This document shows, one piece after another, positions 11,004 to 36,392 of a DNA stretch of 41,770 nucleotides. Under the pieces are notes generated by a model, which saw only the letters and a program-made list of their open reading frames with translations, searched no databases and was not told the origin of the DNA. The stretch is from Acidobacteriota bacterium (GTDB lineage: Bacteria > Acidobacteriota > Thermoanaerobaculia > UBA5066 > Gp7-AA6), in assembly GCA_040004075.1 (NCBI GenBank), contig JBDUBP010000275.1, positions 1 through 41,770 on the forward strand, in the 5' to 3' direction. Numbering within the stretch: position 1 is the first letter of the stretch; each line of letters starts with the position of its first letter. A program made the translations under genes and the position numbers.

Positions 11004-11543
11004 TCAGTCGGGGTCGTCCACCGGAGACCGCAGAAAGTCGGACAGGTCGTAGGACCCGCTCGCGAACTGGAGGGTCAGCTGGCCCGGCTCGAAGATCGTG
11101 CGCTCCAGCGAGAGGTCGATTCCCGGAGGCATCCAGTCGTTCAGGTTGACGACCATGATGCGGTCTTCCGGGTAGAACGTCAGCAGCCCCGGAGGCGCCT
11201 TCTGCACCACGTAGTGCAGGAGCTGATCGGGAATCGGGATGAAGGAAAGCGCCTGGACCTTGTCGAGCACGAAGGCGAGAAAACCGTCCTTGAGCCGCAG
11301 CTGCGACAGGGTCGCCTTGGCGGATAAGGGGACGCCGAATCGATGCACGACGACGGTCGCGGCGAGCTCGCCCGGGGTCACCGCGATCCGAAGATCCTTC
11401 AGATCGGGAATGCGGTCGACCAGACGCTCGACAAAACCGTTCAAAGTTCGCTCATCGAAGATCAGGGATAGGCCGCTCCAGCGAACCCGTCCTTCCTCGA
11501 TGGCGGCCGGCGGGAGAATCTCCGCCGTAGCCTCGTTTTCCAT
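11004..11543 (-). CDS. Hypothetical protein, possibly LmeA/DUF2993- or YpmS-like lipid-binding fold
   Basis: ATG start with TACAAT upstream; protein-like composition with alternating hydrophobic beta strands (DERTLN..., LRLKDGFLAF, IPIPDQLL, GQLTLQF). The family call is by eye. Confidence 0.75.
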   Translation of the reverse strand: MENEATAEILPPAAIEEGRVRWSGLSLIFDERTLNGFVERLVDRIPDLKDLRIAVTPGELAATVVVHRFGVPLSAKATLSQLRLKDGFLAFVLDKVQALSFIPIPDQLLHYVVQKAPPGLLTFYPEDRIMVVNLNDWMPPGIDLSLERTIFEPGQLTLQFASGSYDLSDFLRSPVDDPD

Positions 11544-11557: not shown

Positions 11558-11577
11558 ACGCCCTGGAAGAAAGTCAG

Positions 11578-11653
11578 GAGTTGAGAGTTCAGAGTTAAGA
11601 GTAAAAGCCCGCAAAAGATCGTCTTTTGACTCTCCACTCTCGACTCTCAACTT
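11578..11653. repeat. Inverted pair of heptamer arrays (GAGTWNA)n ... (ACTCTCN)n with inner hairpin
   Basis: Left arm 11578-11605; CAAAAGA-TCG-TCTTTTG hairpin at 11612-11628; right arm 11629-11653. Confidence 0.85.
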
Positions 11654-11654
11654 C

Positions 11655-12629
11655 CTAAAACAGATACGCCAGCGCGAATCCCACCTGCGCGGCCATCATC
11701 AGCAGGTACATGTGGGTCCAGGCCGGATGGTTTTCCGTTCGCGCCAGCTCATCGGGGTCCCGCAGGAGCAGGTAGGCGGCCCAGGCGCCCCAGAGAGCGA
11801 GACCGATTCCGAGCGCTGTCAGCAGGACACGGTTTCCCGTCAGGAGCGCGCCCGTTCCGTGAGGGCCGGACGGCCAGGCGAAGACGGGAATGAGAAGCCA
11901 GGGCAGGATGAAGAACGGGGCGATGATGCGTGCCGCGCGGCGGACGCCGAACCGAATGGGAAGAGTGATGCATCCGTGAGCGCGGTCGCCCTCCATGTCC
12001 GAGAAGTCCTTGGTCGACATCGCGCCGAGCAGGAACAGGGCGAAGATTCCCCCGATGGCCCAGGCTTCGAGCGCCGCGACGCTCGCGACGAACGCCCATC
12101 CCGCCACCTTGAGCAAGCCTCCCCTCGGAATCGCAATCGTCACGTTCGCCGCGAGCCAGTGCCGCTTGGTCCTGCCGAATGCGGGGAACGAATACACGAG
12201 CGTCGCGAGGGCGCCGACGCCATAGAGGAAGAAGGCGGCGTGCAGCGGGAGGGGGGCGGCGAAACGCTCGGAGAGCCGGCTGTAGGGAAACGGCACGACG
12301 ATCCACGTCGGAAGAATCGCCAGGCCATAGAGCGCTCCCGCGGCCTGCCACGCGCGGCGGATCGTGATTTCTCCGGTGACCAGCGGCCTGTTCGGCTTGT
12401 TGCGCCGATCGATTTCGAGGTCGGCAATCTGATTGACGATGTTCGAGGCGGCGTTCAGCGCCGACGCGCACAGAGAGCCGATCGCGACGGTCAGCACGAC
12501 CGCCCACGTGACCCGCCGCGCGGGATCGGGATTGTGCGCCGAGCCGAACGCGCACACCGCGCCCGAAACGATCCCGAGGAGCGGCGGCAGAAGCGTAAAC
12601 GGCCGCGCGAGCCGGAGATATCGCTTCAA
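11655..12629 (-). CDS. UbiA-superfamily prenyltransferase (DGGGP synthase / homogentisate prenyltransferase-like motifs)
   Basis: LARPFT, NQIADLEIDRRNKPNRPLVTG (NxxxDxxxD) and KDFSDMEGD..G..TLP; multiple TM helices; TTG start. Confidence 0.9.
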   Translation of the reverse strand: MKRYLRLARPFTLLPPLLGIVSGAVCAFGSAHNPDPARRVTWAVVLTVAIGSLCASALNAASNIVNQIADLEIDRRNKPNRPLVTGEITIRRAWQAAGALYGLAILPTWIVVPFPYSRLSERFAAPLPLHAAFFLYGVGALATLVYSFPAFGRTKRHWLAANVTIAIPRGGLLKVAGWAFVASVAALEAWAIGGIFALFLLGAMSTKDFSDMEGDRAHGCITLPIRFGVRRAARIIAPFFILPWLLIPVFAWPSGPHGTGALLTGNRVLLTALGIGLALWGAWAAYLLLRDPDELARTENHPAWTHMYLLMMAAQVGFALAYLF

Positions 12630-12676
12630 GAGTCCGTCCGGGCCTGCGAGGCGGCAGTCATCGAGTGTGAGTCGCC

Positions 12677-12697
12677 AACTCTCGACTCTGAACTCTC
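12677..12697. repeat. Heptamer array (RACTCTS)x3
   Basis: AACTCTC GACTCTG AACTCTC between the DUF92 fusion gene and the UbiA gene. Confidence 0.75.
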
Positions 12698-12700
12698 ATG

Positions 12701-14065
12701 TCAACTCAGCTCAAACGGTAGATAGATCCGCCCCCTCGCGATCGACATCGCGACCTCCGCCCCGGCGGCCGCGCCCGCAAACGTGTTCAGGGCATTCGCA
12801 AACTCGTGGTCCGGACGGAACCCGCGCCGCGCGCCGAGATCCGAGAGCAGGCTCTCGCACAGCGAACCGGCCACCCCCGCAGCCCCGACGACCCACACGA
12901 GCGAGAGAGGGATCAGGCCGGCCGCATAGCCGACGCCTCCCATCGCCAGGGCGCCCGCCGCTCCGGCGACGGTGCCCTGCCACGAGACCGCGCCGGCGGT
13001 TCCCGGCGGAACGCGCCGGCCCGAGAGCAGCGAAAGGGGATGGCGGCCCGCCAGGCTCCCGACCTCCGTTCCGAGGGTGTCCGCGAGCGCGGCCGCGAAC
13101 GCCGCGGTCAGCGCCGCGAAGACGGCGTCGGGAAGAAAGGGCCGGCGGCCGGCCGCGACGAGAAGGATTGCGACCGCCAGCCCGCAGTTGGCGACGACGT
13201 GGCGAGCTCCCCGGCGTCCGTCCTCCGCCTGCGCCGTTCCCCGAGAGGACTTCGCGGCCCAGCCCAGCTTCGTCGCGGCGGTCCCCAGCGCGAAGAACGC
13301 CCAGAGGAGCTCGTACGCGCCCCAGCCTCCGATCGCGAGAAGGAGCGTCCCGACGACGAAGCCCGCGGCGGCGCCCGACGAGGAAACGATCCCGAGCCGC
13401 GCGAGGACGAAGGCGAGCACGGCGTTCAGCGCGACGGCGACGAGGAGGTTGCCCGCAAAGCCGGGATACCGGAAAAGCAGGGCCCAGGCGTCGGGACCCA
13501 CGGCGAGCGAGCCCCACAGGACGAGGGAGGCGGTGAGAGGCGCGACGAGGTTGTCTTCGACTCCGGTGCGCAGCGATTCCGCGAAGGCGAAGGCGCCGGC
13601 GGCGGCGAGGACGGGCTCGATCGCGCTCGGCGCCGGCCCCCGCGAGACGAAACGAAACAGGAAGAGACCCGCCGCCAGCGAGACGGTGAAATTGACCAGG
13701 AGACCTGCCCACGTCTTCTCCCGATTCCAGGGCAGGCGGGGCCCGCCGAAAGCGCGTCCGGCGAGGGCGGCGGCGGGGTCGCCGAAGGCGAGCATCCCCC
13801 AGACCGAGGCCGCGATCTCCAGCCGGTGCCGGTAGAGCAGCACGAGCGCGAGAACCGCGGCCGAGTAAGCGACGATGCCCGGGTCCCGGGCGCGCGAGGG
13901 ATCACGGTAGATCGCTCGGCCGATCCGCGGCATCACGAACAGATTGAAGAGGAGCGCGCCAGCGGCCAGGAGCGCCGCCCCGCGCCAGTCGAGGACCGCC
14001 AGGAGCAGCGCGAAAAGCCCCATGACGGCGTGGACCGCCTTTCGCCTGCCGTCGTGCGGGATCAA
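12701..14065 (-). CDS. Fusion of phytol/dolichol-kinase-like (CTP-dependent) domain and DUF92 (TMEM19/VTE6-like) domain
   Basis: N-half: RKAVH, GDPAAALAGRAFG..LPWNREKTWAG, EDNLVAP. C-half: ATKLG, GRRGARHVVANCG, ADTLGTEVG, VPPGTAGAVSWQGT, ESLL, ANALNT. Confidence 0.85.
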   Translation of the reverse strand: MIPHDGRRKAVHAVMGLFALLLAVLDWRGAALLAAGALLFNLFVMPRIGRAIYRDPSRARDPGIVAYSAAVLALVLLYRHRLEIAASVWGMLAFGDPAAALAGRAFGGPRLPWNREKTWAGLLVNFTVSLAAGLFLFRFVSRGPAPSAIEPVLAAAGAFAFAESLRTGVEDNLVAPLTASLVLWGSLAVGPDAWALLFRYPGFAGNLLVAVALNAVLAFVLARLGIVSSSGAAAGFVVGTLLLAIGGWGAYELLWAFFALGTAATKLGWAAKSSRGTAQAEDGRRGARHVVANCGLAVAILLVAAGRRPFLPDAVFAALTAAFAAALADTLGTEVGSLAGRHPLSLLSGRRVPPGTAGAVSWQGTVAGAAGALAMGGVGYAAGLIPLSLVWVVGAAGVAGSLCESLLSDLGARRGFRPDHEFANALNTFAGAAAGAEVAMSIARGRIYLPFELS

Positions 14066-14069
14066 ACTC

Positions 14070-14996
14070 TCACGCCTCCGGCCGGGCGCGCGCGGCGAGG
14101 TACTCGGCGAGCGCGTCGCGCCAGGGCCGAATCGGCTTTCCCGTCTTCGCCTCGTACCGTCCCGTGTCGAGAACGGAGTAGGCGGGGCGAACGGCCGGCC
14201 TCGCGAGCGTCGCCGAGTCGATCGGCAGCACGGGGACCTCTCCGCGACCGGCGAGAGAGACGATCGCCTCGGCGAACTCGAGCCAGCTCGCTTCGCCGCG
14301 GTTGGCGAAGTGGTACACGCCGGAGCCGCGCGAGAGAATCAGCGCCACGATCGCCTCGGCGAGATCCGGGGTCGCGGTGGGGCGCCCTCTCTGATCGTGG
14401 ACGACCGAGAGCTGCGCGCGCCCGGACTCGACCTGCCTCAGGATCGCCTCGACGAAGTTCCAACCCGAGCGGCCGAACAGCCACGAGCTGCGCACGACCA
14501 GGGCGTCGGGAGCCCGGAGCGCCGCTTCCTCGCCCGCGCGTTTGGTGCGGCCATACGCCGAAAGCGGCCGCGTTTCGTCCTGCTCCGTGTAGGGAGAGCC
14601 CTTCGCGCCGTCGAACACGAAGTCGGTCGAGACGTGGACGAGTTGAATCGACCGCGCGAGACACTCCTCGGCCAGAATCCCGACGGCCGCCGCGTTGACC
14701 GCGTGCGCGCGCGGATCGGTCTCGCAATCGTCGACCCTCGTGAACGCAGCGCAGTTGACGACGACGTCGGGAGCCGCTTCCCGAAAGGCGCGACCGACGG
14801 CGGCGGAATCCGTAACGTCCAGGTCTTCTAGCGCCCGCGGAACGACCTGGAACCCCGCCCGCGCGAGCGCCGGAACGACGTCGGAGCCGAGCATCCCTGT
14901 CGCCCCCGTCACGAGCGCCCGGCGCGGCGTGGCCAGCGCGACATGCCCCCCCGGAAGGGATTCCGCCGAGGACGCCGGGCCGGATGCGGTGCTCAT
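14070..14996 (-). CDS. rmlD: dTDP-4-dehydrorhamnose reductase
   Basis: GATGMLG, VNCAAFTRVDDCE, STDFVFDG, YGRTK, DQRGRPT, RPAYSVLD. Confidence 0.95.
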   Translation of the reverse strand: MSTASGPASSAESLPGGHVALATPRRALVTGATGMLGSDVVPALARAGFQVVPRALEDLDVTDSAAVGRAFREAAPDVVVNCAAFTRVDDCETDPRAHAVNAAAVGILAEECLARSIQLVHVSTDFVFDGAKGSPYTEQDETRPLSAYGRTKRAGEEAALRAPDALVVRSSWLFGRSGWNFVEAILRQVESGRAQLSVVHDQRGRPTATPDLAEAIVALILSRGSGVYHFANRGEASWLEFAEAIVSLAGRGEVPVLPIDSATLARPAVRPAYSVLDTGRYEAKTGKPIRPWRDALAEYLAARARPEA

Positions 14997-15263: not shown

Positions 15264-16316
15264 CTAGCGGCGCCCGGCCGGCTCTTTCGCCGTCGCCGAG
15301 GAGGTAGCGAGCCGGTCTCCATACTGCGTCCGGTAGTAATCCCGATACGCGGCGTCCTTCTCCTTCACCGGCCGCCACCAGTCCTCGCGGTTCCGGTACC
15401 ACGCGACGGTCTCCGAGAGGCCGCTCTCAAACGGCGTGCGGCTCGTGAACCCGAGGCGGGCGAGCTTCGACGCGTCGAGGGAATAGCGGCGGTCGTGCCC
15501 GGGGCGGTCGTTGACGAATCGGATCAGGCTCTCGGGCTTCTTCAGCTCGCGCAGGACCTGACGGGTGATTTCGATGTTTTCCGCCTCGTTACCTCCTGCG
15601 ATGTTGTAAACCTCCCCCGGCTCGCCGGCGTCCAGAAGGAAGTCGATCGCGGCCGCGTGATCGCGCACATAGAGCCAGTCGCGCACGTTGCGCCCGTCTC
15701 CATAGAGGGGCAGCGGCTGATCGTCGATCGCGTTCGTGACGAACAGCGGAATCAGCTTCTCCGGGTACTGATACGGGCCATAGTTGTTGGACGCCCGCGT
15801 GATCACGACGGGGACGCCATACGAGGCCCAGTACGAGTACGCCAGGCGGTCGCCCCCCGCCTTCGACGCGGAGTAGGGATTCCTCGGGTTCAGCGCGGAT
15901 TCCTCTGTGAACGAGCCCTCCGCGATCGTTCCGTACACTTCGTCCGTCGAGATCTGGACGAACCGCCGGACACTACGGCGGCGGGCCTCCTCGAGCAGGA
16001 CGAAGACGCCTCGTACGTCCGTCTCGATGAAGGACGCATCGCCCAGAAGCGAGCGGTCCACGTGGGTCTCGGCGGCGAAGTTCACGACGTCCGTGCACCC
16101 GTCCATAGCGGTCCGGACGGCGTCGGGGTCGGTGATGTCGCCGTGGATGAACTGATAGTTGGACCGGTGATCGACGTCCGCCAGGTTGGCGGGGTTGGCG
16201 GCGTACGTCAGCTTGTCGAGGTTGACGACGGTCACGCCGTCCCCGCGCGCCTCGAGGATCTGGCGGATGAAGTTCGATCCGATGAACCCGGACCCGCCCG
16301 TCACGAGAACCTTCAT
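15264..16316 (-). CDS. rmlB: dTDP-glucose 4,6-dehydratase
   Basis: Start reassigned to ATG 16316 (ATGA overlap with rmlA). VTGGSGFIGSNF, DKLTYA, AAETHVDRS, STDEVYG, YSASK, DRPGHDRRY. Confidence 0.96.
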   Translation of the reverse strand: MKVLVTGGSGFIGSNFIRQILEARGDGVTVVNLDKLTYAANPANLADVDHRSNYQFIHGDITDPDAVRTAMDGCTDVVNFAAETHVDRSLLGDASFIETDVRGVFVLLEEARRRSVRRFVQISTDEVYGTIAEGSFTEESALNPRNPYSASKAGGDRLAYSYWASYGVPVVITRASNNYGPYQYPEKLIPLFVTNAIDDQPLPLYGDGRNVRDWLYVRDHAAAIDFLLDAGEPGEVYNIAGGNEAENIEITRQVLRELKKPESLIRFVNDRPGHDRRYSLDASKLARLGFTSRTPFESGLSETVAWYRNREDWWRPVKEKDAAYRDYYRTQYGDRLATSSATAKEPAGRR

Positions 16317-17377
16317 ACGATACCGATCTCCGAGTTGTCTCCGATCAAGAAACGGTGGACGCGAGGGCGCTCGGCGCCCGGATGAATCCGAACGTTCGTG
16401 CCGATCAGGGAATCGGCGATGCGTCCGGGGATGCTCACGACCTGCGACCCGCGGAGGATGATCGAGTTTTCGATCTCGCACCGATCGATCAGGCAGTCCG
16501 GGCCAATGGCCGTGTACGGGCCGACAAACGCGTCCCGGATCTCGGATCCCGGTCCGATGATCGCCGGGCCTCGCACGATGCTGCGGACGAGCTTCGCCCC
16601 GTCTTCCACCACGACCTTGCCCTCGATGCGGCAGCCCGAGTCGACGCCCGCGAGACCGTTCGGCGAGAACGTGTCGAGAATGATTCGGTTCGCCTCGAGC
16701 ATGTCTTCGATCTTGCCGGTGTCCTTCCACCATCCGGAGACCAGGTGCGCATGGACCGTCTTCCCGTGGTCGATGAGCCACTGGATCGCGTCGGTGATCT
16801 CGAGCTCGTCGCGCGCGCTGGGACGGATCGCCTTGACGGCTTCCCAGATGGTGTCGTCGAACATGTAGACGCCGACCAACGCGAGATCGGATCTGGGATT
16901 CTTCGGCTTTTCGGTCAGCCGGAAGACGCGGTCCCCGTCGAGCTCCGCCACCCCGAACTGCTCCGGGTTGGGTACCTTCGCGAGCAGGATCTGAGAGTTG
17001 CAGCCGATGCGCCGGTACTCGTCGACGAGGCTCGAGATCCCGTCGGCGATCAGGTTGTCGCCGAGGTACATGACGAACGGAGATCCCCGCAGGAACTCCT
17101 CCGAGATCAGGACCGCGTGCGCGAGGCCCCGCGGGGCGTCCTGCTCGATGTAGGTGATCTTCGCGCCGAACCGGGACCCGTCGCCGAGCGCCGCCTGGAT
17201 TTCCTCCCGCGTATCACCCACGACGACGCCGATCTCGCGGATCCCCGCGGCGACGATGGCCTCGACCCCGTAGAAGAGGACGGGCTTGTTCGCGACCGGG
17301 ACGAGCTGCTTCGCCCGCGTGTACGTCAGCGGGCGCAGGCGGGTTCCCCGGCCGCCCGAGAGGATCAGACCTTTCAT
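16313..17377 (-). CDS. rmlA: Glucose-1-phosphate thymidylyltransferase, long form with C-terminal beta-helix
   Basis: Start ATG 17377. GLILSGGRGTRLRPLT, KQLVPVANKP, YLGDN, EKP, ELEITDA, WWKDTG, hexapeptide tail. Confidence 0.95.
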   Translation of the reverse strand: MKGLILSGGRGTRLRPLTYTRAKQLVPVANKPVLFYGVEAIVAAGIREIGVVVGDTREEIQAALGDGSRFGAKITYIEQDAPRGLAHAVLISEEFLRGSPFVMYLGDNLIADGISSLVDEYRRIGCNSQILLAKVPNPEQFGVAELDGDRVFRLTEKPKNPRSDLALVGVYMFDDTIWEAVKAIRPSARDELEITDAIQWLIDHGKTVHAHLVSGWWKDTGKIEDMLEANRIILDTFSPNGLAGVDSGCRIEGKVVVEDGAKLVRSIVRGPAIIGPGSEIRDAFVGPYTAIGPDCLIDRCEIENSIILRGSQVVSIPGRIADSLIGTNVRIHPGAERPRVHRFLIGDNSEIGIV

Positions 17378-17386
17378 TCGCGAGGG

Positions 17387-17392
17387 ATCATA
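17387..17392 (-). promoter_or_regulatory. Putative -10 box (TATGAT), near-leaderless
   Basis: TATGAT 9 nt before the rmlA ATG; no SD in between. Confidence 0.55.
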
Positions 17393-17400
17393 ACCGGGCG

Positions 17401-17428
17401 GGAGGCGGCAGGCGGAAGGCGTGAGGCG
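17401..17428. repeat. Heptamer array (NNAGGCG)x4
   Basis: GGAGGCG GCAGGCG GAAGGCG TGAGGCG; complement of the 352-381 unit type. Confidence 0.7.
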
Positions 17429-17488
17429 GCGGCCGAAAAGGACTCCCGCTGGCCGGCCAGCCCCACCGCCCAACCGCCCGGCGGTTTC

Positions 17489-19831
17489 TCACTGCCCGAA
17501 TATCCGGTCGACGCTCTGATGCAGATCGAGCAGGGTGCCGATGTCCTTCAGGTTGACCACGAACCGCACGTCCCGGCGCGTGGTGGGCGGCAGGCGCAGC
17601 TGCCGCACCTCCACGAAAACGGTGTAGCAGGAGGCGCGGAAGGCGACGAGCGTGCGGTCCTCGAGAAGCAGGTTCTGCCGCGCGTCGTAGTTCAACTGCG
17701 TGTCCACCCGGAACTGCTTCGAGAGCTCGATGCCCGCCGCGACCCGGAACTGGTCGGAATTCGGCGAGGGAAATCCCGCGGGAAGGGGCGTGGCCAGGAT
17801 GGGACGGCTCGCGAACCACGTCGCGTTGACGAAGCTCGTCTTGCGGTTGTAGGCGGCGGAGATCGACGTGCCCGTGACCTGAGAAGCGCCCCCGTCGTAG
17901 GAGAGCCGGCCGTCGAGGTGGAACCCCGGACCGGGCGCCACCCGGAGCGTGGCTTCGACGGGGCCTGTCTTCGTGACGAGAGGATTGGCGAACGTGGTCG
18001 CGCTCGGCAGGAGACTCTGCGGCAGAGTGAAGGCGCGCGTCTGCGCGACCTCGAACGAGGCGATTTCCTCGGCCGCCGGGGCCTTCGGGTCGGCGGCGCG
18101 GGCGAGCAGCCGATTGACCAGCGCGTAGCGGACCTGGTTCTGCCCGAGCTGCAGGTCCACCTCGTCGAACGACGGAATCCGTTCGGGATCGCCCACTTCG
18201 GACACGTAGCTGTAGTCGATCCGCGGCTCGATCACGTGTTTGAACTTGCCGAACCGGCCGATCGCTACGTCGAAGATCCGGGAAAACGACGGACCGACGA
18301 TGGAGAGGCCAGCCTCCCCGTACTCGCGGGTCAGAGATTCTCCGACGAAGCGGGTCTGCGTGGCGGAATCCGTCGAGTCCGTGTACTCGGTGAACCGGCC
18401 GCCCGCGCGGGCCGTGATCGACAGCCACGGAATTTTCTTCCAGGGGAGTGACACAGTCGGATGGACGTCGAACCGCCCGTAGTCTCCCCGTGGCAGCCCG
18501 GGCCCGCGGTTCAGGTAAAGCCAGGAGGCGGAGGACTCCAGCGCGAGGAACAACGGGGTCTGCCCGACGCGCGACGTCCGCCGGAAGAACTCCGCGCTCG
18601 GCAGGCGCTCCGAAATCACCGTCGTTCCGAAGAACGTTACCGCCCGCTCGAACCGGATGTTGAGCGAGTCGTCCCCGAAGTTCTTCGTGAGAAACGCGCG
18701 AGAGAGAATCTGCCGCGCCGAGTTCAGCGCGAACGAGCGCTCGAGGTCCTGCAGGTACTGCTCGTCGGAGTAGTCGCGCAAGGCGAGCACGCCGCGGAAG
18801 CCCCCGGGGAGATCGTCGGACACGTGGTCCAGCCGGTACTTCCAGCGGTTCTTCGTCTTCCGCGTGAAAACGCCCGTCGTTCCGTCCGGCAGCGTGCAGA
18901 AGCTCGTTTCCCCCGGCGCCTGGTCGAGCGGGACGCACACCGTCGCATCCGTGTCGTGGATCGCATACCCCTGAAAGAGCCCGGCCGACTCGGCGGTCGG
19001 GGTCCAGCGGAACTCTTCGCCGAGGCCGACGGAGCCCTTCGAATAGAGGTCCAGGTTCGACGTCAGGTCCGTCGAGCGCCCCGTGACCCAGTAGTGCGTC
19101 AGGCCGAGGTAGGCCCCTCGCGAGCTGTACCCCGCCCCCGGGACGAGCAGGCCGGAGGCGCGGTCCTCCTTCGTCGGCCAGACGAGGTAGGGCGTCCAGA
19201 GGAGAGGCACCGAGCCGGCCCGGAACGAGACGTTCTTCATGCGGGCGTAGTCGTCGAGCGTGACGATCGCCTCGGAGAGCCGGAACGACCAGGAGGGCTT
19301 CGGGACGTCGCACGCCGTGAAGAGGCCGTCGTGGATCCGGTAGGTCGCCTCGCCGATCTTCTCAATGGACTTCGCGATGACGTGGTACGCGGGCGAGAGA
19401 TCCGCCGTGGCGTCCTCCATGCGGCCCGTCTTCGCTTCGAGCTGGAAGGTCCCCCGGCTGCCCGAAAGTCGGGTCGGCCCCTGGTCGATCACGACGTGGC
19501 CCTCGAGAGTGGCGGTCTTCGTGGGAAAGTCGTACCGCGCCTTGTCGGCGGTGATCTTCACGTCCTGGTACTCGATGACGACCTCGTCCGACCCCTCCCA
19601 CGACACGTCCTTCTCGTAGTGGACGGGCTTCTTCGTGTAAAGGCGGACCTCGCCGCCCTTCGTCGGAGGCCGAAATCGCAGCTGAAAGTTGGGTCGGACC
19701 TTGAACTGGCCCTCGAACGGGTCGGAGGAGCCGAACGGGTCCTGGGCGAGAAGCGTGCCGGAACAGAAAACGGAAACGAGGAGAAGCGCCGCGGAGACGG
19801 CCGTCCGCAGGCGATCCGGCGCTGGCCTCAC
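17489..19831 (-). CDS. lptD: LPS-assembly outer-membrane protein LptD
   Basis: Start reassigned to GTG 19831 (GTGA overlap with the scoB stop), which gives a signal peptide. OstA-like N-domain (ITADKARYD), FTAC...[28 protein letters not shown]-terminal ASCY. Confidence 0.88.
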
Positions 19832-20487
19832 GCCGGCATGGAACGCACGTCGGAGGCGACCCGGAACGCGGCTTCGGTCCTCGCCCGAATCTCCTCCTCC
19901 CCGACTCCCGGAGCGAGCTCGACTAAGACGAGCTGGCGTTCTCTTCGATCGACGTCGAAGACGCAGAGGTCGGTGATGATGCGGTCGACGCAGCCTCGAC
20001 CCGTCAGCGGCAGCGTGCATCGCCTCAGGATCTTCTTCTCCCCCGACCGCGCCGTGTGCTCCATCGTCACCACGAGGCGGCGAGCCCCGGCAACGAGGTC
20101 CATCGCCCCGCCCATGCCCTTCACCATTTTTCCCGGGATCATGTAGTTGGCGATCGAGCCCTCCTCGTCCACCTGCATCGCCCCGAGGATCGAGAGATCG
20201 ACGTGCCCCCCCCGGATCATCGCGAAAGAGTCCGCTGAAGAGAAGTACGAAGCGCCGGGCCGGACCGTCACCGTCTCTTTTCCGGCATTGATGAGGTCGG
20301 GATCGATCTCCGCCTCCGTGGGATATGGGCCCAGCCCGAGAATTCCATTCTCCGACTGGAGGATCACTTCCATGCCCGCGGGGATGTGGTTCGCGACGAG
20401 GGTCGGCATCCCGATCCCGAGGTTCACCGTAAAGCCGTCCTCGAGCTCGAGAACGGCGCGCCGGATGATGCCTTCCCGATCGAGCAT
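19828..20487 (-). CDS. scoB: 3-oxoacid CoA-transferase subunit B
   Basis: [14 protein letters not shown] catalytic Glu, [23 protein letters not shown]; ATG 20487 preferred. Confidence 0.95.
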
Positions 20488-21289: not shown

Positions 21290-21429
21290 GTTGAGCGTTA
21301 GGCGTCGAGCGCTGAGCGCAGGAGCTCAGAGTTCAGAATTCAGAGTTGAGAGTTGAGAGTTCAAAGTTTGAAGCCGGCTGGCCGCGCTGGCTCGCATGAA
21401 CGCCTATCGCTGAACGCTCGACGCTCAAC
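21290..21429. repeat. Nested heptamer arrays
   Basis: Outer GTTGAGC-type arm (21290-21318) is approximately complementary to the ACGCTC-type arm (21398-21429) and encloses a GAGTTSA-type array (about 21322-21368). Confidence 0.85.
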
Positions 21430-27538: not shown

Positions 27539-27660
27539 AGTTGAGAGTTCAGAGTTGAGAGTCGAGAGTTACGTCAAGGCGTCGAGGTTGAACATTTCAG
27601 CAAACGAGTTCGGACTCTGAACTCTGAACTCTCGACTCTCAACTCTCAACTCTCAACTCT
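27539..27660. repeat. Inverted pair of heptamer arrays between convergent genes
   Basis: AGTTGAG-type arm at 27539-27570 and ACTCTCA-type arm at 27613-27660; includes the stop of the Dsb gene. Confidence 0.9.
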
Positions 27661-28795
27661 TCCCGAAAATCGACTTGAGCTTCGGGAAAAGCGTGCGCAG
27701 GAACTCTTCCATCACCTTGTCCTCGATCCAGGTGATCTCGGTCCCGTCGATGAAGTACGTCGGAGTGGAATTGACGCCCAGCCGGTAGCCCTCTTCGATC
27801 TCGTGCCGCACGCGCGAGAAGCTCCTCTCCTGCAGGTAGCAGGCGAGGAGATCCGCCGAGGAGATTCCTTCCGCGCCCGCGGTCGTCACCGCGAGCTCGT
27901 CGATCCCTGAGACCGTCATGCTCTCCTGCCGCGCGTAGACCTGCTCCTTGAAGCGAAAGAACGGCGCGGCTCCCGCGGACTTGAAGATGCAGTCGCCGGC
28001 GGAGGCCGCCTTCATCGCCCAGATGTGCCCGAACCACAGGGGGAAGAACTTGTAGTGGCGCCGCGCGTTGACGATCCCCGCGTTGGCTTCGAGGAGCCTG
28101 TCGAACTGGAGGCCGCGCATCTTGCAATACCCGCACTCCATGTCCGCGAATTCGACGATGTTGACGGCCGCCTCGGGCTTTCCGGTCGCGCGCGCCGCGG
28201 AGAGGTCGATGTGCCGGCGCCGCTCCTCGCGCGGATCGCCGCGGAAATCCCACAAGACGCCCTGCAGGAATTTCGTGCCGTCGGCGGAAACGTACCCGGG
28301 GAAACGGACGGGCCCGTATCCGGTCTCGACCGCCACGTTCACGCCTTTGTAGGGAGGGGTGTCCCGCTCGGGCGCGAGCTGCGGAGTCACCTTCGTCCGG
28401 AAGACCGCCGAGATCTTCTCTCCCACCCACGAGAGGTCGGCGGCGGATCGGATCGGCCGAGGCGCCGGGTTCGCCACGGAGTCCCCTTCGAAGAACCACT
28501 TGCCGTCGTCGGAGACGTAGTACAGGCGGTCGACGTTCAACTTCTCGTAGCGGCCCTTCCGCACGATCTTGTAGCCCTGCATCCCCGGGAGACGCTCGGC
28601 CGACTTCGTCACCGCGATGTGGCTCTCGGGGTCCCAGGAGAGAAATCGGAGCGCAAAGGTCTGCAGCTGCGCCTCGACGCCTGCCGCCGGCTCCGGGGCG
28701 CCGGCGGGACGGGCGGCAGCCTTTTTGGGCGCCGCGGCCGCGACCGCTCCGATGGCCGCCGCGATGAGTGCGGCCCCGACGATTCTCTTGTTCAT
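27653..28795 (-). CDS. Exported DsbA/DsbC-like thiol-disulfide oxidoreductase
   Basis: Start reassigned to ATG 28795 (GAGGAG RBS). Signal peptide; EFADMECGYC; GVNSTPTYFIDG cis-Pro loop; two DsbC_N-like segments. Confidence 0.9.
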   Translation of the reverse strand: MNKRIVGAALIAAAIGAVAAAAPKKAAARPAGAPEPAAGVEAQLQTFALRFLSWDPESHIAVTKSAERLPGMQGYKIVRKGRYEKLNVDRLYYVSDDGKWFFEGDSVANPAPRPIRSAADLSWVGEKISAVFRTKVTPQLAPERDTPPYKGVNVAVETGYGPVRFPGYVSADGTKFLQGVLWDFRGDPREERRRHIDLSAARATGKPEAAVNIVEFADMECGYCKMRGLQFDRLLEANAGIVNARRHYKFFPLWFGHIWAMKAASAGDCIFKSAGAAPFFRFKEQVYARQESMTVSGIDELAVTTAGAEGISSADLLACYLQERSFSRVRHEIEEGYRLGVNSTPTYFIDGTEITWIEDKVMEEFLRTLFPKLKSIFGKS

Positions 28796-28803
28796 GTCTC
28801 TCC

Positions 28804-30999
28804 TCAAGATCGGGGACGCGCGCCCCCGCGGACGACCCGGAGCGATTCGATCACTCCGGGCTGGTTGGCATTCATGGCGAGAGAACGCTCGAAGAGGCGA
28901 ACCGCTTCCTCGGTGTCTCCCAGGCACGTGTGAAAGAGGCCCAGGGCATTCAGAGTCTCTATGTCGCGCGTGGCGGGCGCAAACTGATTCAAGGCCTCGA
29001 GCGCGCCCTTGCAGTCGCGGGACTGGAACCGGGCCAGAGCCGCTTCCCGGGCGACCGGTTCGCTGGCAGGGAGCTGGCGCAGCGCCCTTTCCGCGACGGC
29101 GCGCGCTTCACGGGGCTTGCCGCGCCTCTCGTAATCCTGGATCCACTGGCGGACCGTGCCGGGGGGGTCCGCGTGCCCCGCCGCGAGCGAGCGGAAGAGC
29201 CACTCCTGCGCGTCGGAGTCTTTCCCCTCCGTGCGGTCGAGCACCGCCAGGTTGAACATCGGCGAATGATAGTCGGGACGAAGCTCGAGCGCCTTCCCGA
29301 ACGCGGCGCGCGCCGCCGGCAGGTCGCGCTCGGAGTCCCGTTCGTACAGCCCGAGGTTGTTCCAGGCGCCCTCGGTTCGCCCGGGCAGCGCCCCGCCCGG
29401 CGCCGCCAGCGGACGCGTCTCCGAACCGGACAGGTACCCGAGAGCGAGAAGTTTTTTCGCGTACTCGGACGCCTGAGCCGCCGACATTTCCTGAGCCTCG
29501 ACCCGCCGAACCGGGACGTTTCGCGTGGCTTCCCGGGGCAGGATTTTCAAATCCGAGAACGCCGCCGAGATCGCGCGCCCCGGCATCTGTCGGTCCGCCG
29601 CTACCCCGAGGAGCGCGAGAACCGTTGGAGCGGCGTCGAACATCGACGGCTTCAGGGCGGATTTCCCGGGTAAGACGCGCTCGCCCCAGGCCGCGAAAAC
29701 GCCGTCGAGCCGGTGCCAGAACGCCGCCGTGCTCCAGTTCAATGAGGAGCGCTCGCAGGGGCGGTCCGTTCCCCATTTGAACCCGTGGTCCGACTGCATC
29801 AGGAGGGTCCCGTGATCTTCCTTGGCGCGACGCATCCATTGGCCCAGCATCCGGTCGATCACCGCGTAGTACTCGTCGACGGCGCGCCCGTACCGCGCAA
29901 AATCCGCCTCGGGAGTGCAGGAAAGGCGCGGCGGCGCATCGGACCCGAAGACGTGGCCGATTTCGTCCGTCCCCTCGATGTACAGCATCATCAGGTCCGG
30001 CAGATTGCGGTCGTAGAGGTCGCGAGCCGCGCGATGGGAGACCCGCGTCGCTCCGAGAATTCGAGACAGCGCGACGATCGGGTTTTCCATGCCGGCCCCG
30101 CTCGCCAGCGCCTGCTCGATCTCGCCCTGGGGCACGTCCACGAAGCGCGCGAGGTCCGCCGCCGCGACCCGCCCGTCGCGCGCGATGACCTGCGCCACGC
30201 CGGCCTCGAGCGCCGCGGGATAGGCCACCCCGGAGAGCGGGAGCCTGTCGTAGAGGATCGGGCTCGCATGATCGGTCAGGAAAAATCCGTTCACCTGTTC
30301 CGCCGGATGCGTGGCCCACCAGCCGACGACCCCCACCTTCTTTCCCGCCTCCGACGCGATGTTCCAGACCGCCGGCACGCGGCGGGAGCGTCCCGAGATC
30401 GGAACCTTCTGCCCGGTCTTGGGGTCCACCTCTTGAAAATCCAGGACTCCGTGAACTTTGGGCGATACGCCCGTGGCAATCGTGGTCCAGACGATCGGGG
30501 AAAGAATCGGGATGAAGCTCGTGATGCGCGTGGAGTATCCGGTCCCGACCAGTCGCGTCCAATTGGGCATCTTTCCCTCGGATGAAAGCCGGTCGAGGAT
30601 CTCCCAATCGAGCCCGTCCAGGCCGAGCCAGATCACCGGATGCGAGGAGCCGTCGGGCCGCCGATTGCGTGTCGCGACGTCGGAGCTCTCGACCGCTGGC
30701 GACTCGGCGGCGCGCTCTGCGGGAGCCGCGACAGAGGCCGGTCGAAGCCCCGCCGACCTTTCACCGCGACCGCACGAGAGAAGCACTCCGAACGCCGCGG
30801 CTAGCCCGACGATCGCCGCCGCGCGCCCGCGAGGGTTGCTCGACCGTTGTCTGGCGCGAGTCACGGAGGGCGGCCGCCTCTCTTGAGCAGTTTTCGCTCG
30901 CCGGAGATCAGGTCCGGAGCGCGAAAGAGGGGCATCCACCCTGGCGGAGGAGGCCGCGGAGACGCCAGAGAAGAGCGCCAGCGCGAGCAACCTTCGCAC
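28804..30999 (-). CDS. Alkaline phosphatase-superfamily (NPP/phosphodiesterase-like) lipoprotein with C-terminal TPRs
   Basis: LGLDGLD, SPIVWTTIATG, TDEIGH, SDHGF, LLALGYL linker, TPRs, lipobox LLSC. Start is either GTG 30999 or GTG 30864. Confidence 0.88.
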   Translation of the reverse strand: MRRLLALALFSGVSAASSARVDAPLSRSGPDLRRAKTAQERRPPSVTRARQRSSNPRGRAAAIVGLAAAFGVLLSCGRGERSAGLRPASVAAPAERAAESPAVESSDVATRNRRPDGSSHPVIWLGLDGLDWEILDRLSSEGKMPNWTRLVGTGYSTRITSFIPILSPIVWTTIATGVSPKVHGVLDFQEVDPKTGQKVPISGRSRRVPAVWNIASEAGKKVGVVGWWATHPAEQVNGFFLTDHASPILYDRLPLSGVAYPAALEAGVAQVIARDGRVAAADLARFVDVPQGEIEQALASGAGMENPIVALSRILGATRVSHRAARDLYDRNLPDLMMLYIEGTDEIGHVFGSDAPPRLSCTPEADFARYGRAVDEYYAVIDRMLGQWMRRAKEDHGTLLMQSDHGFKWGTDRPCERSSLNWSTAAFWHRLDGVFAAWGERVLPGKSALKPSMFDAAPTVLALLGVAADRQMPGRAISAAFSDLKILPREATRNVPVRRVEAQEMSAAQASEYAKKLLALGYLSGSETRPLAAPGGALPGRTEGAWNNLGLYERDSERDLPAARAAFGKALELRPDYHSPMFNLAVLDRTEGKDSDAQEWLFRSLAAGHADPPGTVRQWIQDYERRGKPREARAVAERALRQLPASEPVAREAALARFQSRDCKGALEALNQFAPATRDIETLNALGLFHTCLGDTEEAVRLFERSLAMNANQPGVIESLRVVRGGARPRS

Positions 31000-34184: not shown

Positions 34185-36392
34185 TCACCTCCTTTCAGGC
34201 TGCGAAAGACCGCTGGCGCCCGAGAGCCGGGCGATCAATTGGCGGGCGACGGCGCGCTGCTTCGCGAATCCGGGATCGCCGGCGGCGGCGCGCAGGAAAT
34301 CCCGGTACGCAGCGACGGCAGAGCGGGTCTGTCCCATCGTTTCGAAGGCGATGCCGCGGTTCAACCTCGCCTCGTGGTACTGCGGCGCGAGGACCAGCGC
34401 GCGCTCGAAGTCGGGGATTGCCGCTCCCGGGCGTCCGCACGCGACCTCGAGGGTGCCGAGGCCGTTCCACGCCTCCGCGTAGCGCGGCGCCAGCTCAGTT
34501 GCCCGCCGGTAGGCCCTCTCCGCCTCGTCGAGGCGGCCGAGCTGGCGCAGGACGTTGCCCCGGTTGTTCTGGGCTCGCGCATCTCGCGGATCGAGCTCTG
34601 CGGTGCGGTCGAACTGCGCGAGCGCCTGGAGCGGGTTCCCCTTCCCCGCGAGCGCGATGCCGAGCGCGTTGTGCGCCTCCGGCCGGGAGGAATCGCGCCG
34701 GATCGCCTCCTCAAGGGCCCCACGGGCCTCGTCTCCCTGCCCCGCCTCTTGCAACGTCACCGCGAGATTGTAGCGAGCATCGGGGTCGGTGGGCGCATCA
34801 GCGACGGCGCGGCGGTAAAGCGCGACCGCCCGCGGATAATCCTTTTGGCGCCGGTACGCCTCTGCGAGAAGGCCGCGGAAGACTGAGTTCTTCGGGTCGG
34901 CGGCGATGAGCGGCTCGAGCTTGCGCACGGCTTCTTTCAGGAGCCCGCTCTGAAGCGACCAGTTCGCCTCCTCGAACTTCCGGAAAAGCGGCGCCATCTC
35001 CTTCGGATCCTTCCGGGTGCCGCCGGCGGAAGAGGCCGAGCCGGCCGGGCCGCCGGAGATGTAACCGAGACTCGCAAGCTTCGCGGCGGTCTCGTCGCGG
35101 CCGTACGCCGCAGCGGCGGCGACGCTCCCTTCTTGGAACTTCGCGAGCCGTGTCTCCAGGTCCGCGCGCCGCGCCCCTTCGGCCAGCAGGTTCGAGGCCT
35201 CGCCGGGGTCGCGCGAGAGATCGTAGAGCTCCGCCCGCGGCGCCGCGATGTACTTCAACCTCCCGCGCCGCACTGCCGAGAGACCACTCCACCCGAAGGT
35301 CCGCGGGTACTCCGTCTCGGCGTAGAGCTCGGTCTCGACCGGCTCGCTTCCGTTCTTGATCGCAGAGGAGAGGTCCCGCCCGTCGAAGGGTCGGACACCC
35401 TTTCCACCGCTCGCCCCGGCCAGGGGCTTTCCGAGCATCCCCGCCAGCGTCGGCGCGAGATCGGCGAGGCCGACAGGTGCGCCGACTGCCTTTCCGGCCG
35501 GGAGCCCGGGGCCGCGCAAAATCAGAGGCACCCGCAGCGTCGGCTCGTAGAGGAGCAGACCGTGTGTGAGCTCGCCATGCTCGCCGAGCGCCTCGCCATG
35601 GTCGGCGGTGACGGCGACGACGGTCGAATCGGCGAGCCCGCTGCGATCCAGAAAGTCGAGCAACTTCGCAATTTGCGCATCGACGAACGCGATCTCACCG
35701 TCGTAGGGGACCGCCTTGTGCCGGCTCGCATAGGGCTCGGGAGGCGCGTAAGGCGCATGCGCGTCGTAGAAGTGCACCCAGGCGAAGAAAGGCCGTCCGC
35801 CGCTCCCCCCCTGGGTTTTCTCGAGCCAGGCGACCGCGCGGTCCGCGACCTGCGAAGCCGGGCGCTCCGCGTCGAGCGAGCCGGGTGCGTTCGGGTCCCG
35901 TTCGATCTCGTCGTCGTAGACGTCGAACCCACGCCCAAGGCCAAACCGATGGTCGAGCACGAAGGAGCCGACGAACGCGCCGGTCGAATAGCCCGCCGCG
36001 GACAGCAGCGTGGCGAGTGTCGGGCGGTCGTCCGGGAAGCAACCGGCGCCATTGTTGCGCAGCCCATGGTGCGGAGGCGTGAGGCCGGAGAGGATCGTCG
36101 CGTGCGAAGCGAGAGTCAGCGGAACCGCGGACTGCGCGTGGTCGAAGCGGATGCCCTCATGCGCAAGGCGGTCGAGCGCTGGCGTCTCGGCGGAGCGGTA
36201 GCCGTAGGCGCCCACGTGATCGGCGCGCACCGTGTCGATCGTGACAAGGAGGAGGCTGCGAGGGTGCGACCAGACGTTTTCGCGGGGGCCGCAGCTCCAC
36301 AGAGCGAGACCGACCGCTGCAACGACGAAGGCAGACACGATGCGTCCGGGCGACGAAACCGAGCCGCGTGCCCGTTCCATGGATCCCTGCAT
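34185..36392 (-). CDS. Sulfatase-like hydrolase/transferase lipoprotein with C-terminal TPRs
   Basis: Lipobox LWSC; TIDTVRADH, PLTLASHATILSG, YDAHAPY, ADHGE..GEHGE..HG, LASLGY, TPRs. Start ATG 36392 or 36380. Confidence 0.92.
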   Translation of the reverse strand: MQGSMERARGSVSSPGRIVSAFVVAAVGLALWSCGPRENVWSHPRSLLLVTIDTVRADHVGAYGYRSAETPALDRLAHEGIRFDHAQSAVPLTLASHATILSGLTPPHHGLRNNGAGCFPDDRPTLATLLSAAGYSTGAFVGSFVLDHRFGLGRGFDVYDDEIERDPNAPGSLDAERPASQVADRAVAWLEKTQGGSGGRPFFAWVHFYDAHAPYAPPEPYASRHKAVPYDGEIAFVDAQIAKLLDFLDRSGLADSTVVAVTADHGEALGEHGELTHGLLLYEPTLRVPLILRGPGLPAGKAVGAPVGLADLAPTLAGMLGKPLAGASGGKGVRPFDGRDLSSAIKNGSEPVETELYAETEYPRTFGWSGLSAVRRGRLKYIAAPRAELYDLSRDPGEASNLLAEGARRADLETRLAKFQEGSVAAAAAYGRDETAAKLASLGYISGGPAGSASSAGGTRKDPKEMAPLFRKFEEANWSLQSGLLKEAVRKLEPLIAADPKNSVFRGLLAEAYRRQKDYPRAVALYRRAVADAPTDPDARYNLAVTLQEAGQGDEARGALEEAIRRDSSRPEAHNALGIALAGKGNPLQALAQFDRTAELDPRDARAQNNRGNVLRQLGRLDEAERAYRRATELAPRYAEAWNGLGTLEVACGRPGAAIPDFERALVLAPQYHEARLNRGIAFETMGQTRSAVAAYRDFLRAAAGDPGFAKQRAVARQLIARLSGASGLSQPERR

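Follow-up and report, generated by a model that had tools for sequence, protein, structure and literature searches.

The window analysed here is a 41,770-nt stretch of DNA from an Acidobacteriota bacterium (GCA_040004075.1, contig JBDUBP010000275.1, positions 1 to 41,770), whose genome is 74% complete. Our subject is a pair of neighbouring genes on its minus strand. One encodes a membrane protein that joins a dolichol/phytol-kinase-like domain to a DUF92 domain, and the other encodes a UbiA-superfamily prenyltransferase that we call the orphan UbiA. An initial annotation of the window had proposed both open reading frames (ORFs), and both are present on that strand (Table 1). They lie within a run of 11 co-directional genes that extends from 23822 to 11004 and begins, at its upstream end, with a thiolase, a methyltransferase and two CoA-transferase subunits, then lptD. 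The annotation was also right that the fusion starts 4 nt past the rmlD stop: the TGA occupies 14072-14070 and the TTG start 14065-14063. The TTG is favoured over an alternative ATG at codon 14 because residues 5-13 (KRKAVHA), which precede that ATG, are at least 90% conserved in an alignment of 40 sequences, 36 of which reach across them. A 71-nt spacer separates the fusion stop from the UbiA start. As the annotation had stated, no photosynthesis genes were seen among the ORFs of the window scanned with Pfam.

Table 1. Genes, domains, motifs and other features at the locus, in the direction of transcription
Feature	Position	Strand	Basis or remark
lptD	17489-20020	-	Pfam match
Long-form rmlA-like nucleotidyltransferase	16313-17473	-	Pfam match
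rmlB	about 15264-16316	-	Pfam match
rmlD, dTDP-4-dehydrorhamnose reductase	14070-14996	-	TIGR01214 286.9 bits vs cut-off 224
Two-domain membrane protein, 454 aa, dolichol/phytol-kinase-like + DUF92	12701-14065	-	ORF, TTG start
N-terminal domain, aa 1-205, CdsA/CarS/dolichol-kinase superfamily; putative CTP-dependent prenol kinase	13451-14065	-	
DUF92 domain (PF01940, COG1836, VTE6-type), aa 206-454 + stop; putative prenyl-phosphate kinase	12701-13450	-	
Orphan UbiA-superfamily prenyltransferase, 324 aa	11655-12629	-	PF01040 106.4 bits
First Asp-rich motif of the UbiA, N63-R81, NIVNQIADLEIDRRNKPNR	12387-12443	-	also written NQIADLEIDRRNKPNRP
Second motif of the UbiA, K207-D215, KDFSDMEGD	11985-12011	-	
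Imperfect hairpin, 85 nt, overlaps and directly follows the UbiA stop	11574-11658	-	fold and inverted repeat I1
179-aa protein, no known family	11004-11543	-	no Pfam/NCBIfam match

It is worth considering the two halves of the fusion separately. The initial annotation had named a domain for each, and profile models bear out one of them. PF01940 covers residues 214-407 (E 3.8e-42, 144.8 bits against a cut-off of 27.5), so the DUF92 assignment stands, although the narrower model TIGR00297 reaches 125.3 bits on this half and stays below its cut-off of 205.85. The N-terminal domain searched alone has no Pfam or NCBIfam match. A phmmer search with its 210 N-terminal residues against 1.84 billion representatives returned 1013 proteins at E<=0.001. 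These comprise fusions of about 450 residues and stand-alone proteins of about 190-240 residues; two of the 10 stand-alone homologues looked up carry the JGI label 'dolichol kinase', and the other 8 are nameless. We aligned 25 of the stand-alone homologues with the query domain to give 26 sequences. The conserved motifs of this alignment are GDxxAxxxG(R)xxGxxxLPWNxxK(S/T)WxG and ES...DDN, and in the 40-sequence alignment the invariant residues of the domain are G95 and D96, W113, N114, K117 and G121, E163, and D171 and N172. We take the motif ES...DDN(L)xVP to resemble VTE5 and Sec59. The sole family that recurs among the 26 members is PF01148, which matches 4 of them weakly (best E 0.014), and an Atlas feature search with the N-terminal part gave the same family as a weak lead (score 0.91; on 16% of cluster members). 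Aligned by hhalign against five acidobacterial CdsA proteins, the 26-sequence profile reaches a probability of 95.6% (E 1.2e-8), and the overlap falls on the CdsA signature: the GDxxAxxxGR...K(T/S)W(E/A)G...ES motifs. The DUF92 half reaches 76% (E 2.2e-5) against the same CdsA alignment.

Predicted structures agree with this. The AlphaFold2 model of the whole fusion is all-helical and confident (predicted local distance difference test, pLDDT, 91.9; predicted template modelling score 0.88), as is the N-terminal domain modelled alone (pLDDT 92.3). Folds were compared by exhaustive alignment (VIA-align) against 48,161 representative PDB chains. The top two matches of the N-terminal domain are CdsA 4q2e (Z 8.9, root-mean-square deviation (rmsd) 5.8, 172 residues aligned) and then the CDP-archaeol synthase CarS 5guf (Z 7.1, rmsd 2.6, 92 aligned). 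The DUF92 half matches the same two enzymes, CarS 5guf (Z 9.4, rmsd 3.9, 125 aligned, 21% identity) and CdsA 4q2e (Z 7.1). These Z values are middling for helical proteins, and the weight lies in the agreement of profile and fold. Foldseek searches of the PDB with the whole and N-terminal models found nothing at E<=0.001, with CdsA appearing only at E 0.08-0.46, and PDB sequence searches with the fusion profile and the N-terminal-domain profile gave nothing relevant. Both halves belong to the intramembrane superfamily of enzymes using cytidine triphosphate (CTP) that holds CdsA, CarS and the dolichol and phytol kinases. Each half is putatively a kinase rather than a cytidylyltransferase. Of 8000 candidates scored, 539 are homologues of the whole fusion at E<=0.001. 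The 120 that were listed are mostly of similar length, all have PF01940, and their identity goes down to about 50-55%. Among the matches listed, the named relatives of both the fusion and the UbiA carry Thermoanaerobaculia or Acidobacteriota labels.

The orphan UbiA belongs to its superfamily (the PF01040 cut-off is 34.2 bits) and has both Asp-rich motifs, including the KDFSDMEGD that the initial annotation had pointed out. Motif invariance and family-model patterns were judged on 16 aligned orthologues. Residues N63, N66, Q67, D70, D74, N77, K78, P79 and R81 are invariant in the first motif and K207, D208, F209, D211, E213, G214 and D215 in the second. The first motif aligns with NVINDIFDIEIDRINKPSR of MjDGGGPS and the second with KDFEDMEGD of the same enzyme and NDFKSVEGD of ChlG. 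The correspondence with DGGGPS is near letter-for-letter in both motifs (NVINDIFDIEIDRINKPSRPL against NIVNQIADLEIDRRNKPNRPL, and KDFEDMEGD against KDFSDMEGD). Neither solved relative has the Gln that the first motif carries at its second position; we take a Gln at this position to be typical of HPT. By sequence, the matches in the PDB are DGGGPS 6m31 (1.8e-12), ChlG 9sau (1.1e-8) and AfUbiA (5.9e-4). The best-scoring curated NCBIfam models are for the same group of enzymes, and each falls far short of its cut-off: 89.6 bits against 313 for ChlG (NF005742), 84.9 against 269 for PRK12884, 74.5 against 212.3 for BchG (TIGR01476), 61.3 against 296 and 51.5 against 353 for DGGGPS (NF009521 and NF009522), and 57.8 against 226 for HPT (NF009525). 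All 16 orthologues match the ChlG, BchG, DGGGPS and HPT models in the same pattern. The suggestion in the initial annotation that this is an HPT- or DGGGPS-type enzyme does not hold at the level of family membership.

The same annotation had set the enzyme apart from canonical MenA, UbiA and CyoE, and here it was right. The models for MenA, UbiA, MqnP, CyoE and DPPR synthase give at most 27 bits. The source genome has three other UbiA-superfamily genes: an MqnP/UbiA-like protein (TIGR01475, 287.7 against 180.8), a heme O synthase (TIGR01473, 274 against 210.3) and a DPPR-synthase-like protein (170.4 against 207; contig C66:16600-17301, L004:1396-2526, minus strand). With three separate paralogues in the same genome, the canonical UbiA functions are covered by other genes. 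The DPPR-synthase-like paralogue also suggests that this acidobacterium may have a pathway for a lipid-linked pentose. A maximum likelihood tree of the 16 orphan UbiAs, the three own paralogues and three BchG-family genes from genome G160 places the orphan UbiAs outside the BchG-family clade, MqnP and CtaB. It must be noted that this is a weak tree dominated by long branches, and that the DPPR-like paralogue attaches within the orphan group, probably as an artefact.

The pathways that canonical relatives would need can be examined as well. No GGGP synthase (PcrB, PF01884) was found in any of 201 Acidobacteriota genomes at E<=1e-6, a search in which the positive controls, B. subtilis and 4 archaea, were matched. 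Other families were checked in 5 genomes that carry the module, 4 of them at least 95% complete. The CarS family PF01864 is found in none of the 5, so both the substrate of DGGGPS and its follow-up step are missing. Tocopherol cyclase (PF14249) is also found in none and HPPD (TIGR01263) exceeds its cut-off in one, so the tocopherol route is missing too; the co-substrate routes that an HPT or DGGGPS would imply are not borne out. Full-length matches to TIGR02032, the geranylgeranyl-reductase superfamily, are present in 4 of the 5 but below cut-off, and they are uninformative on phytyl versus geranylgeranyl groups. Since the curated cut-offs are missed and these routes are lacking, the orphan UbiA is not a canonical HPT, DGGGPS or ChlG. 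It is an uncharacterised clade, and a tight one: the window's UbiA is 79-93% identical to the 120 database relatives listed, its own entry excluded.

The distribution of the two genes ties them together. In the same 201 genomes the fusion has a match at E<=1e-10 in 89, and an orthologue of the UbiA is present at E<=1e-30 in 70. The kinase is also present in 69 of those 70. The two genes lie within 500 nt of each other in 42 of the 69 (39 on the same strand and 3 convergent) and 1.1 kb apart in one. If genomes G024 and G152 are left out, 67 of 68 UbiA genomes have the kinase and 40 have it adjacent. Joint conservation of the pair, on which the initial annotation had made its reading depend, is thus supported. 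Ten genomes have a DUF92-type match alone, and none of these has the UbiA. The kinase domains are separate genes in four genomes, adjacent in G001, G041 and G054 and on different contigs in G194, which fits two sequential activities. A second sample was the best 80 UbiA loci from a scan of genome contigs, all from uncultured metagenome-assembled genome (MAG) records. The kinase is within 600 nt of the UbiA in 52 of them; 26 lack an adjacent kinase even though their sequence runs on for 1.5 kb or more upstream, and in 2 the upstream sequence is too short. One genome, G160 (3.7 Mb, two contigs), is the only one of the 201 with BchG-family genes over the cut-off, in three copies. It has the full-length kinase fusion, which is not adjacent to lptD or SDR (short-chain dehydrogenase/reductase) genes, and no orphan UbiA orthologue was found in it. 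This fits a generic supplier of prenyl diphosphate to ChlG-type enzymes.

Gene neighbourhoods beyond the window add a setting for the module. Among 17 phylum-wide loci that hold the pair, 15 have an LptD-like gene upstream and 7 have an RmlD-like gene, and an LptD-like gene is present in 38 of the 52 adjacent-pair loci from named MAG records. Many lineages have a lipid-type extended SDR of about 330 residues directly upstream of the fusion. HpnA, 'hopanoid-associated sugar epimerase', is the top-scoring model for each of the 7 that were scanned (126-248 bits, cut-off 367.65), followed by the sterol demethylase SdmB and OleD. This gene is absent at the window locus; a 35%-identical homologue is found elsewhere in the source genome. 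The HpnA-like SDR query also gave identical matches (E-value, score and length) at C115:25444-26409 and C116:25422-26387 of that genome, probably because the assembly contains a duplicate or redundant contig. The initial annotation had suggested a rhamnosylated isoprenoid as one possible product. Gene order speaks for the idea and nothing else does; an RmlD-like gene is present in 7 of the 17 loci, and an HpnA-like SDR takes its place in other lineages. An AlkP-family phosphodiesterase is directly beside the module in 3 scanned loci (L020, L023 and L024). In G176 (L013, C2, 3218-6848) the UbiA is followed by an ICMT-family methyltransferase, an AMP-binding enzyme and a geranylgeranyl-reductase-like gene, which could be a lineage-specific extension of the module.

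The loci in which the UbiA is separate from the kinase might be expected to name its acceptor. In G005 the separate UbiA is directly downstream of a gene of the type that makes farnesyl or geranylgeranyl diphosphate (FPP or GGPP; NF045485, 276.4 bits against a cut-off of 275), and PagL and a GT2 glycosyltransferase are also neighbours. Across 18 such loci, clustering and Pfam searches of 33 neighbours found no partner shared beyond one family. Without a recurrent partner the context does not name the acceptor. The lptD, SDR and PagL neighbourhoods point to the cell envelope, but gene order alone is insufficient to settle this.

The window locus is a typical member of its lineage, and its local peculiarities are these: rmlD replaces the HpnA-like SDR upstream, the 179-residue protein lies downstream, and repeat-built hairpins occupy the spacers. 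That protein follows the UbiA in 32 of the 52 adjacent-pair loci, which are close relatives, and in 0 of 20 phylum-wide loci. Its Atlas clusters are Acidobacteriota-only, with weak leads to LmeA (0.82), DUF2140 (0.80) and DUF1439 (0.80). The hairpin after the UbiA is made of GAGAGTC-like 7-nt units and folds at -40.6 kcal/mol (z -5.28), which none of 200 shuffles equals. A terminator scan did not call it, and a sigma-70 promoter scan gave 0 sites. Intergenic palindromic elements of 7-nt units (GAGAGTC / GAGAGTT) occur at 11579-11652, 12678-12698, 21341-21426 and 27543-27661. With up to 2 mismatches GAGAGTCGAGAGT has 17 matches where 2.7 are expected, a number reached in 0 of 100 shuffles. These elements look like REP-type elements or gene-flanking terminators. 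The GC content of the window is 61-73% in 2-kb windows. The rmlA-like protein has 386 residues with a C-terminal left-handed beta-helix/hexapeptide part, and no rmlC was seen in the window between rmlA, rmlB and rmlD. Elsewhere in the window two large proteins (28804-30999 and 34185-36392, minus strand) combine an alkaline-phosphatase-superfamily domain (Phosphodiest; Sulfatase) with C-terminal TPR repeats.

We argue that the most economical reading of the pair would follow the scheme from VTE5 to VTE6 to a phytyltransferase. The fusion would be a two-step, probably CTP-dependent, isoprenoid-alcohol kinase. Its N-terminal domain would convert a free membrane prenol, most likely a short one of C15-C20, to the prenyl monophosphate, and its DUF92 domain would convert the monophosphate to the prenyl diphosphate. 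The orphan UbiA would bind this diphosphate through its two Asp-rich motifs and move the prenyl group to an acceptor other than homogentisate, chlorophyllide or GGGP. Its product is probably an envelope lipid whose prenyl group is O-linked, by an ether or an ester bond. On balance we think it probable, if not by much, that a fused two-step prenol kinase supplies the orphan UbiA and that the UbiA prenylates an acceptor to give an envelope prenyl lipid. The analysis shows which superfamilies the domains belong to, the motifs they carry, and how often the two genes co-occur and adjoin across the phylum; the kinase chemistry, the order of the steps, the chain length and the acceptor are the parts of this scheme that we infer. 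The UbiA is almost never found without the kinase while the kinase is sometimes found without the UbiA, an asymmetry that would follow if the kinase made the donor for the UbiA and could serve other clients as well. ChlG, DGGGPS and HPT all use C20 diphosphates. The affinity of the clade to these enzymes, along with the FPP/GGPP-synthase-type neighbour in G005, suggests a C15-C20 donor. An ether or ester product is somewhat likelier than aromatic C-prenylation since DGGGPS and ChlG both form C-O bonds.

Several points weigh against this scheme. The pair is split over different contigs in 26 of the 69 genomes, and 5 of the 56 genomes with a near-full-length fusion have no UbiA orthologue at E<=1e-30. 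At four loci, one with the UbiA elsewhere (L030) and three where none was found at that threshold (L132-L134), the fusion stays beside SDR genes all the same; lptD is also retained beside it in two of these loci (L133 and L134). If the fusion persists without a nearby UbiA, the kinase must have at least one other client or role. The fold is also common to cytidylyltransferases and the top match of the DUF92 half is CarS, so the kinase chemistry is presumed. As far as its sequence goes, the N-terminal domain lacks a match to a curated kinase model. The C15-C20 estimate leans on one of 18 separate-UbiA contexts. Finally, cells can make FPP and GGPP de novo, which leaves the need for prenol salvage in a non-phototroph unexplained. 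One can imagine a fuller scenario, in which the prenol, possibly reduced or otherwise modified, would arise at the alcohol level, and in many lineages an adjacent HpnA-like reductase may be what produces it. Glycerophosphate lipids and molecules associated with lipopolysaccharide (LPS) are examples of what the acceptor could be. The module would then be the core of an undescribed bacterial class of isoprenoid lipids built from a C15-C20 prenol, charging by the kinase and ether or ester linkage by the UbiA to an envelope acceptor, and the Acidobacteriota would possess an outer-membrane lipid that bears prenyl groups and is made with no GGGP synthase. We put this fuller version forward tentatively, as a possibility.

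Other readings of the same genes must be considered. The envelope neighbourhood could mean that the fusion serves the supply of lipid carriers: the N-terminal domain would phosphorylate undecaprenol or another polyprenol to the monophosphate carrier of LPS or O-antigen assembly, and the UbiA, like DPPR synthase, would take polyprenyl phosphate as its acceptor and make a lipid-linked sugar. In 15 of the 17 phylum-wide loci lptD and sugar-nucleotide-type SDR genes precede the fusion, which keeps that neighbourhood where the UbiA is elsewhere or not found and in the window begins 4 nt past rmlD. The UbiA of G005 has PagL and a GT2 glycosyltransferase beside it, and the sections of PMC5898192 on COG1836 link the archaeal family to uppS. 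However, the DPPR-synthase model gives the UbiA no more than 23.4 bits, there is no DPPR synthase among its PDB matches at E<=1, and the genome has its separate DPPR-synthase-like paralogue at 170 bits. A second phosphorylation by the DUF92 domain would give a diphosphate, which is not the carrier form, and carrier recycling does not account for a UbiA that hardly ever occurs without the kinase (present in 69 of 70 UbiA genomes). We consider this unlikely. The fold match of the DUF92 half invites another scenario, an archaeal-style route that dispenses with GGGPS. The UbiA would make a prenyl-ether or prenyl-ester phosphate lipid, the DUF92 domain would be a CarS-like cytidylyltransferase and the N-terminal domain the sole kinase. 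CDP-archaeol synthase 5guf heads the fold matches of the DUF92 half (Z 9.4, 125 aligned, 21% identity), and DGGGPS, with its near-identical motifs, is the nearest solved structure to the UbiA. Yet for an all-helical model a Z of 9.4 is a commonly met value, PcrB/GGGPS is found in none of the 201 genomes and CarS PF01864 in none of 5, and the relevant passage of a review (PMC9782597) assigns the plant phytyl-phosphate kinase VTE6 to DUF92. It is improbable that the module works in this way.

The lack of a conserved acceptor-pathway gene beside the UbiA in its 18 separate contexts would be natural if there were no acceptor, that is, if the UbiA were a terpene synthase or cyclase that turns the kinase-made diphosphate into a terpene with no second substrate. 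A passage of a bioRxiv preprint (10.64898/2026.10.28.762581) mentions UbiA-type terpene synthases in bacteria and fungi. But the motifs and best families of all 16 orthologues are those of transferases (DGGGPS, ChlG and HPT), and an identity of 79-93% to the 120 listed relatives, together with the envelope context, suits a core lipid over a secondary metabolite. We hold a terpene product to be very improbable. A further explanation is that the UbiA is a canonical enzyme of divergent sequence, namely an HPT of tocopherol synthesis, a DGGGP synthase or a (bacterio)chlorophyll synthase. HPT, DGGGPS and ChlG/BchG are indeed its best-scoring curated families, and it has the KDxxDxEGD motif in common with DGGGPS. 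This is already largely refuted and scarcely credible, since every curated cut-off is missed by about threefold or more, searches turned up PcrB in none of 201 genomes, tocopherol cyclase in none of 5 and an HPPD above its cut-off in one of 5, and the one genome of 201 with BchG-family genes over the cut-off is without the orphan UbiA.

Few soil bacteria are as abundant as the Acidobacteriota, whose envelope lipids serve as environmental proxies. Here a highly conserved prenyltransferase is tied to a dedicated putative two-step prenol kinase and lies beside lptD, the gene for LPS insertion. Once identified, the product would extend the repertoire of bacterial membranes by one lipid class, reveal the role of prenol 'salvage' kinases in organisms that do not photosynthesise, and assign a function to the non-phototroph members of DUF92/COG1836. 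An isoprenoid ether lipid, should the product be one, would also matter to the discussion of the 'lipid divide' between archaea and bacteria. Our search of the literature on UbiA, dolichol kinase, DUF92 and Thermoanaerobaculia prenyltransferases found no description of the bacterial module. Passages of PMC6431249 that concern DGGGPS and Acidobacteria make no mention of the orphan UbiA gene.

Each component has a relative in a known system. The two-kinase pathway itself is known from plants and cyanobacteria, where VTE5 is the phytol kinase and VTE6 the phytyl-phosphate kinase, and the two feed HPT/VTE2, ChlG and MenA. The acidobacterial module would draw on the same two families in the same presumed order, and its client would be a UbiA of the ChlG/HPT/DGGGPS group. 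It differs in that the kinases are fused, the host is not a phototroph, the UbiA is other than HPT, ChlG or MenA, and homogentisate and tocopherol genes were not found in most of the 5 carriers checked. The UbiA can be set beside its two solved relatives in the same way. MjDGGGPS 6m31 is its top solved sequence match, with N..N.I.D.EIDR.NKP.RPL and KDF.DMEGD..G.I.LPI..G nearly identical, but the orphan UbiA has NQ for ND in the first motif and an inserted segment at about residues 106-160. ChlG/BchG (9sau) gives its top NCBIfam model, with an alignment over residues 4-236; the orphan UbiA nevertheless remains far below the cut-offs of 313 and 212 and stands outside the BchG-family clade in our weak tree.

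The fusion too has a counterpart, its architecture being already known from archaea. The portion of the work of Makarova, Galperin and Koonin (2015; PMC5898192) that treats COG1836 reports that COG1836/pfam01940 matches pfam01148 by HHpred (97.57%) and that Mbar_A3310 of Methanosarcina barkeri has an extra N-terminal domain matching the dolichol kinase COG0170/Sec59 (99.85%). It ascribes to the family a probable kinase step in isoprenoid metabolism, and it gives uppS as the single conserved context of archaeal COG1836. COG1836 (At1g78620) is also tabulated under 'phytol-phosphate metabolism' in the relevant table of PMC3223725. In its passages on these enzymes the review PMC9782597 reports that plant VTE6 had been predicted to be a phytyl-phosphate kinase by way of COG1836, and notes that VTE5 and FOLK resemble dolichol kinase. 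Going by the published description, the archaeal COG0170-COG1836 fusions (arCOG02245, with a Sec59-like N-terminus) and the acidobacterial fusion have an identical domain architecture. What differs is the company they keep: uppS in the Archaea as those sections describe it, and lptD, SDR genes and the orphan UbiA in the Acidobacteriota.

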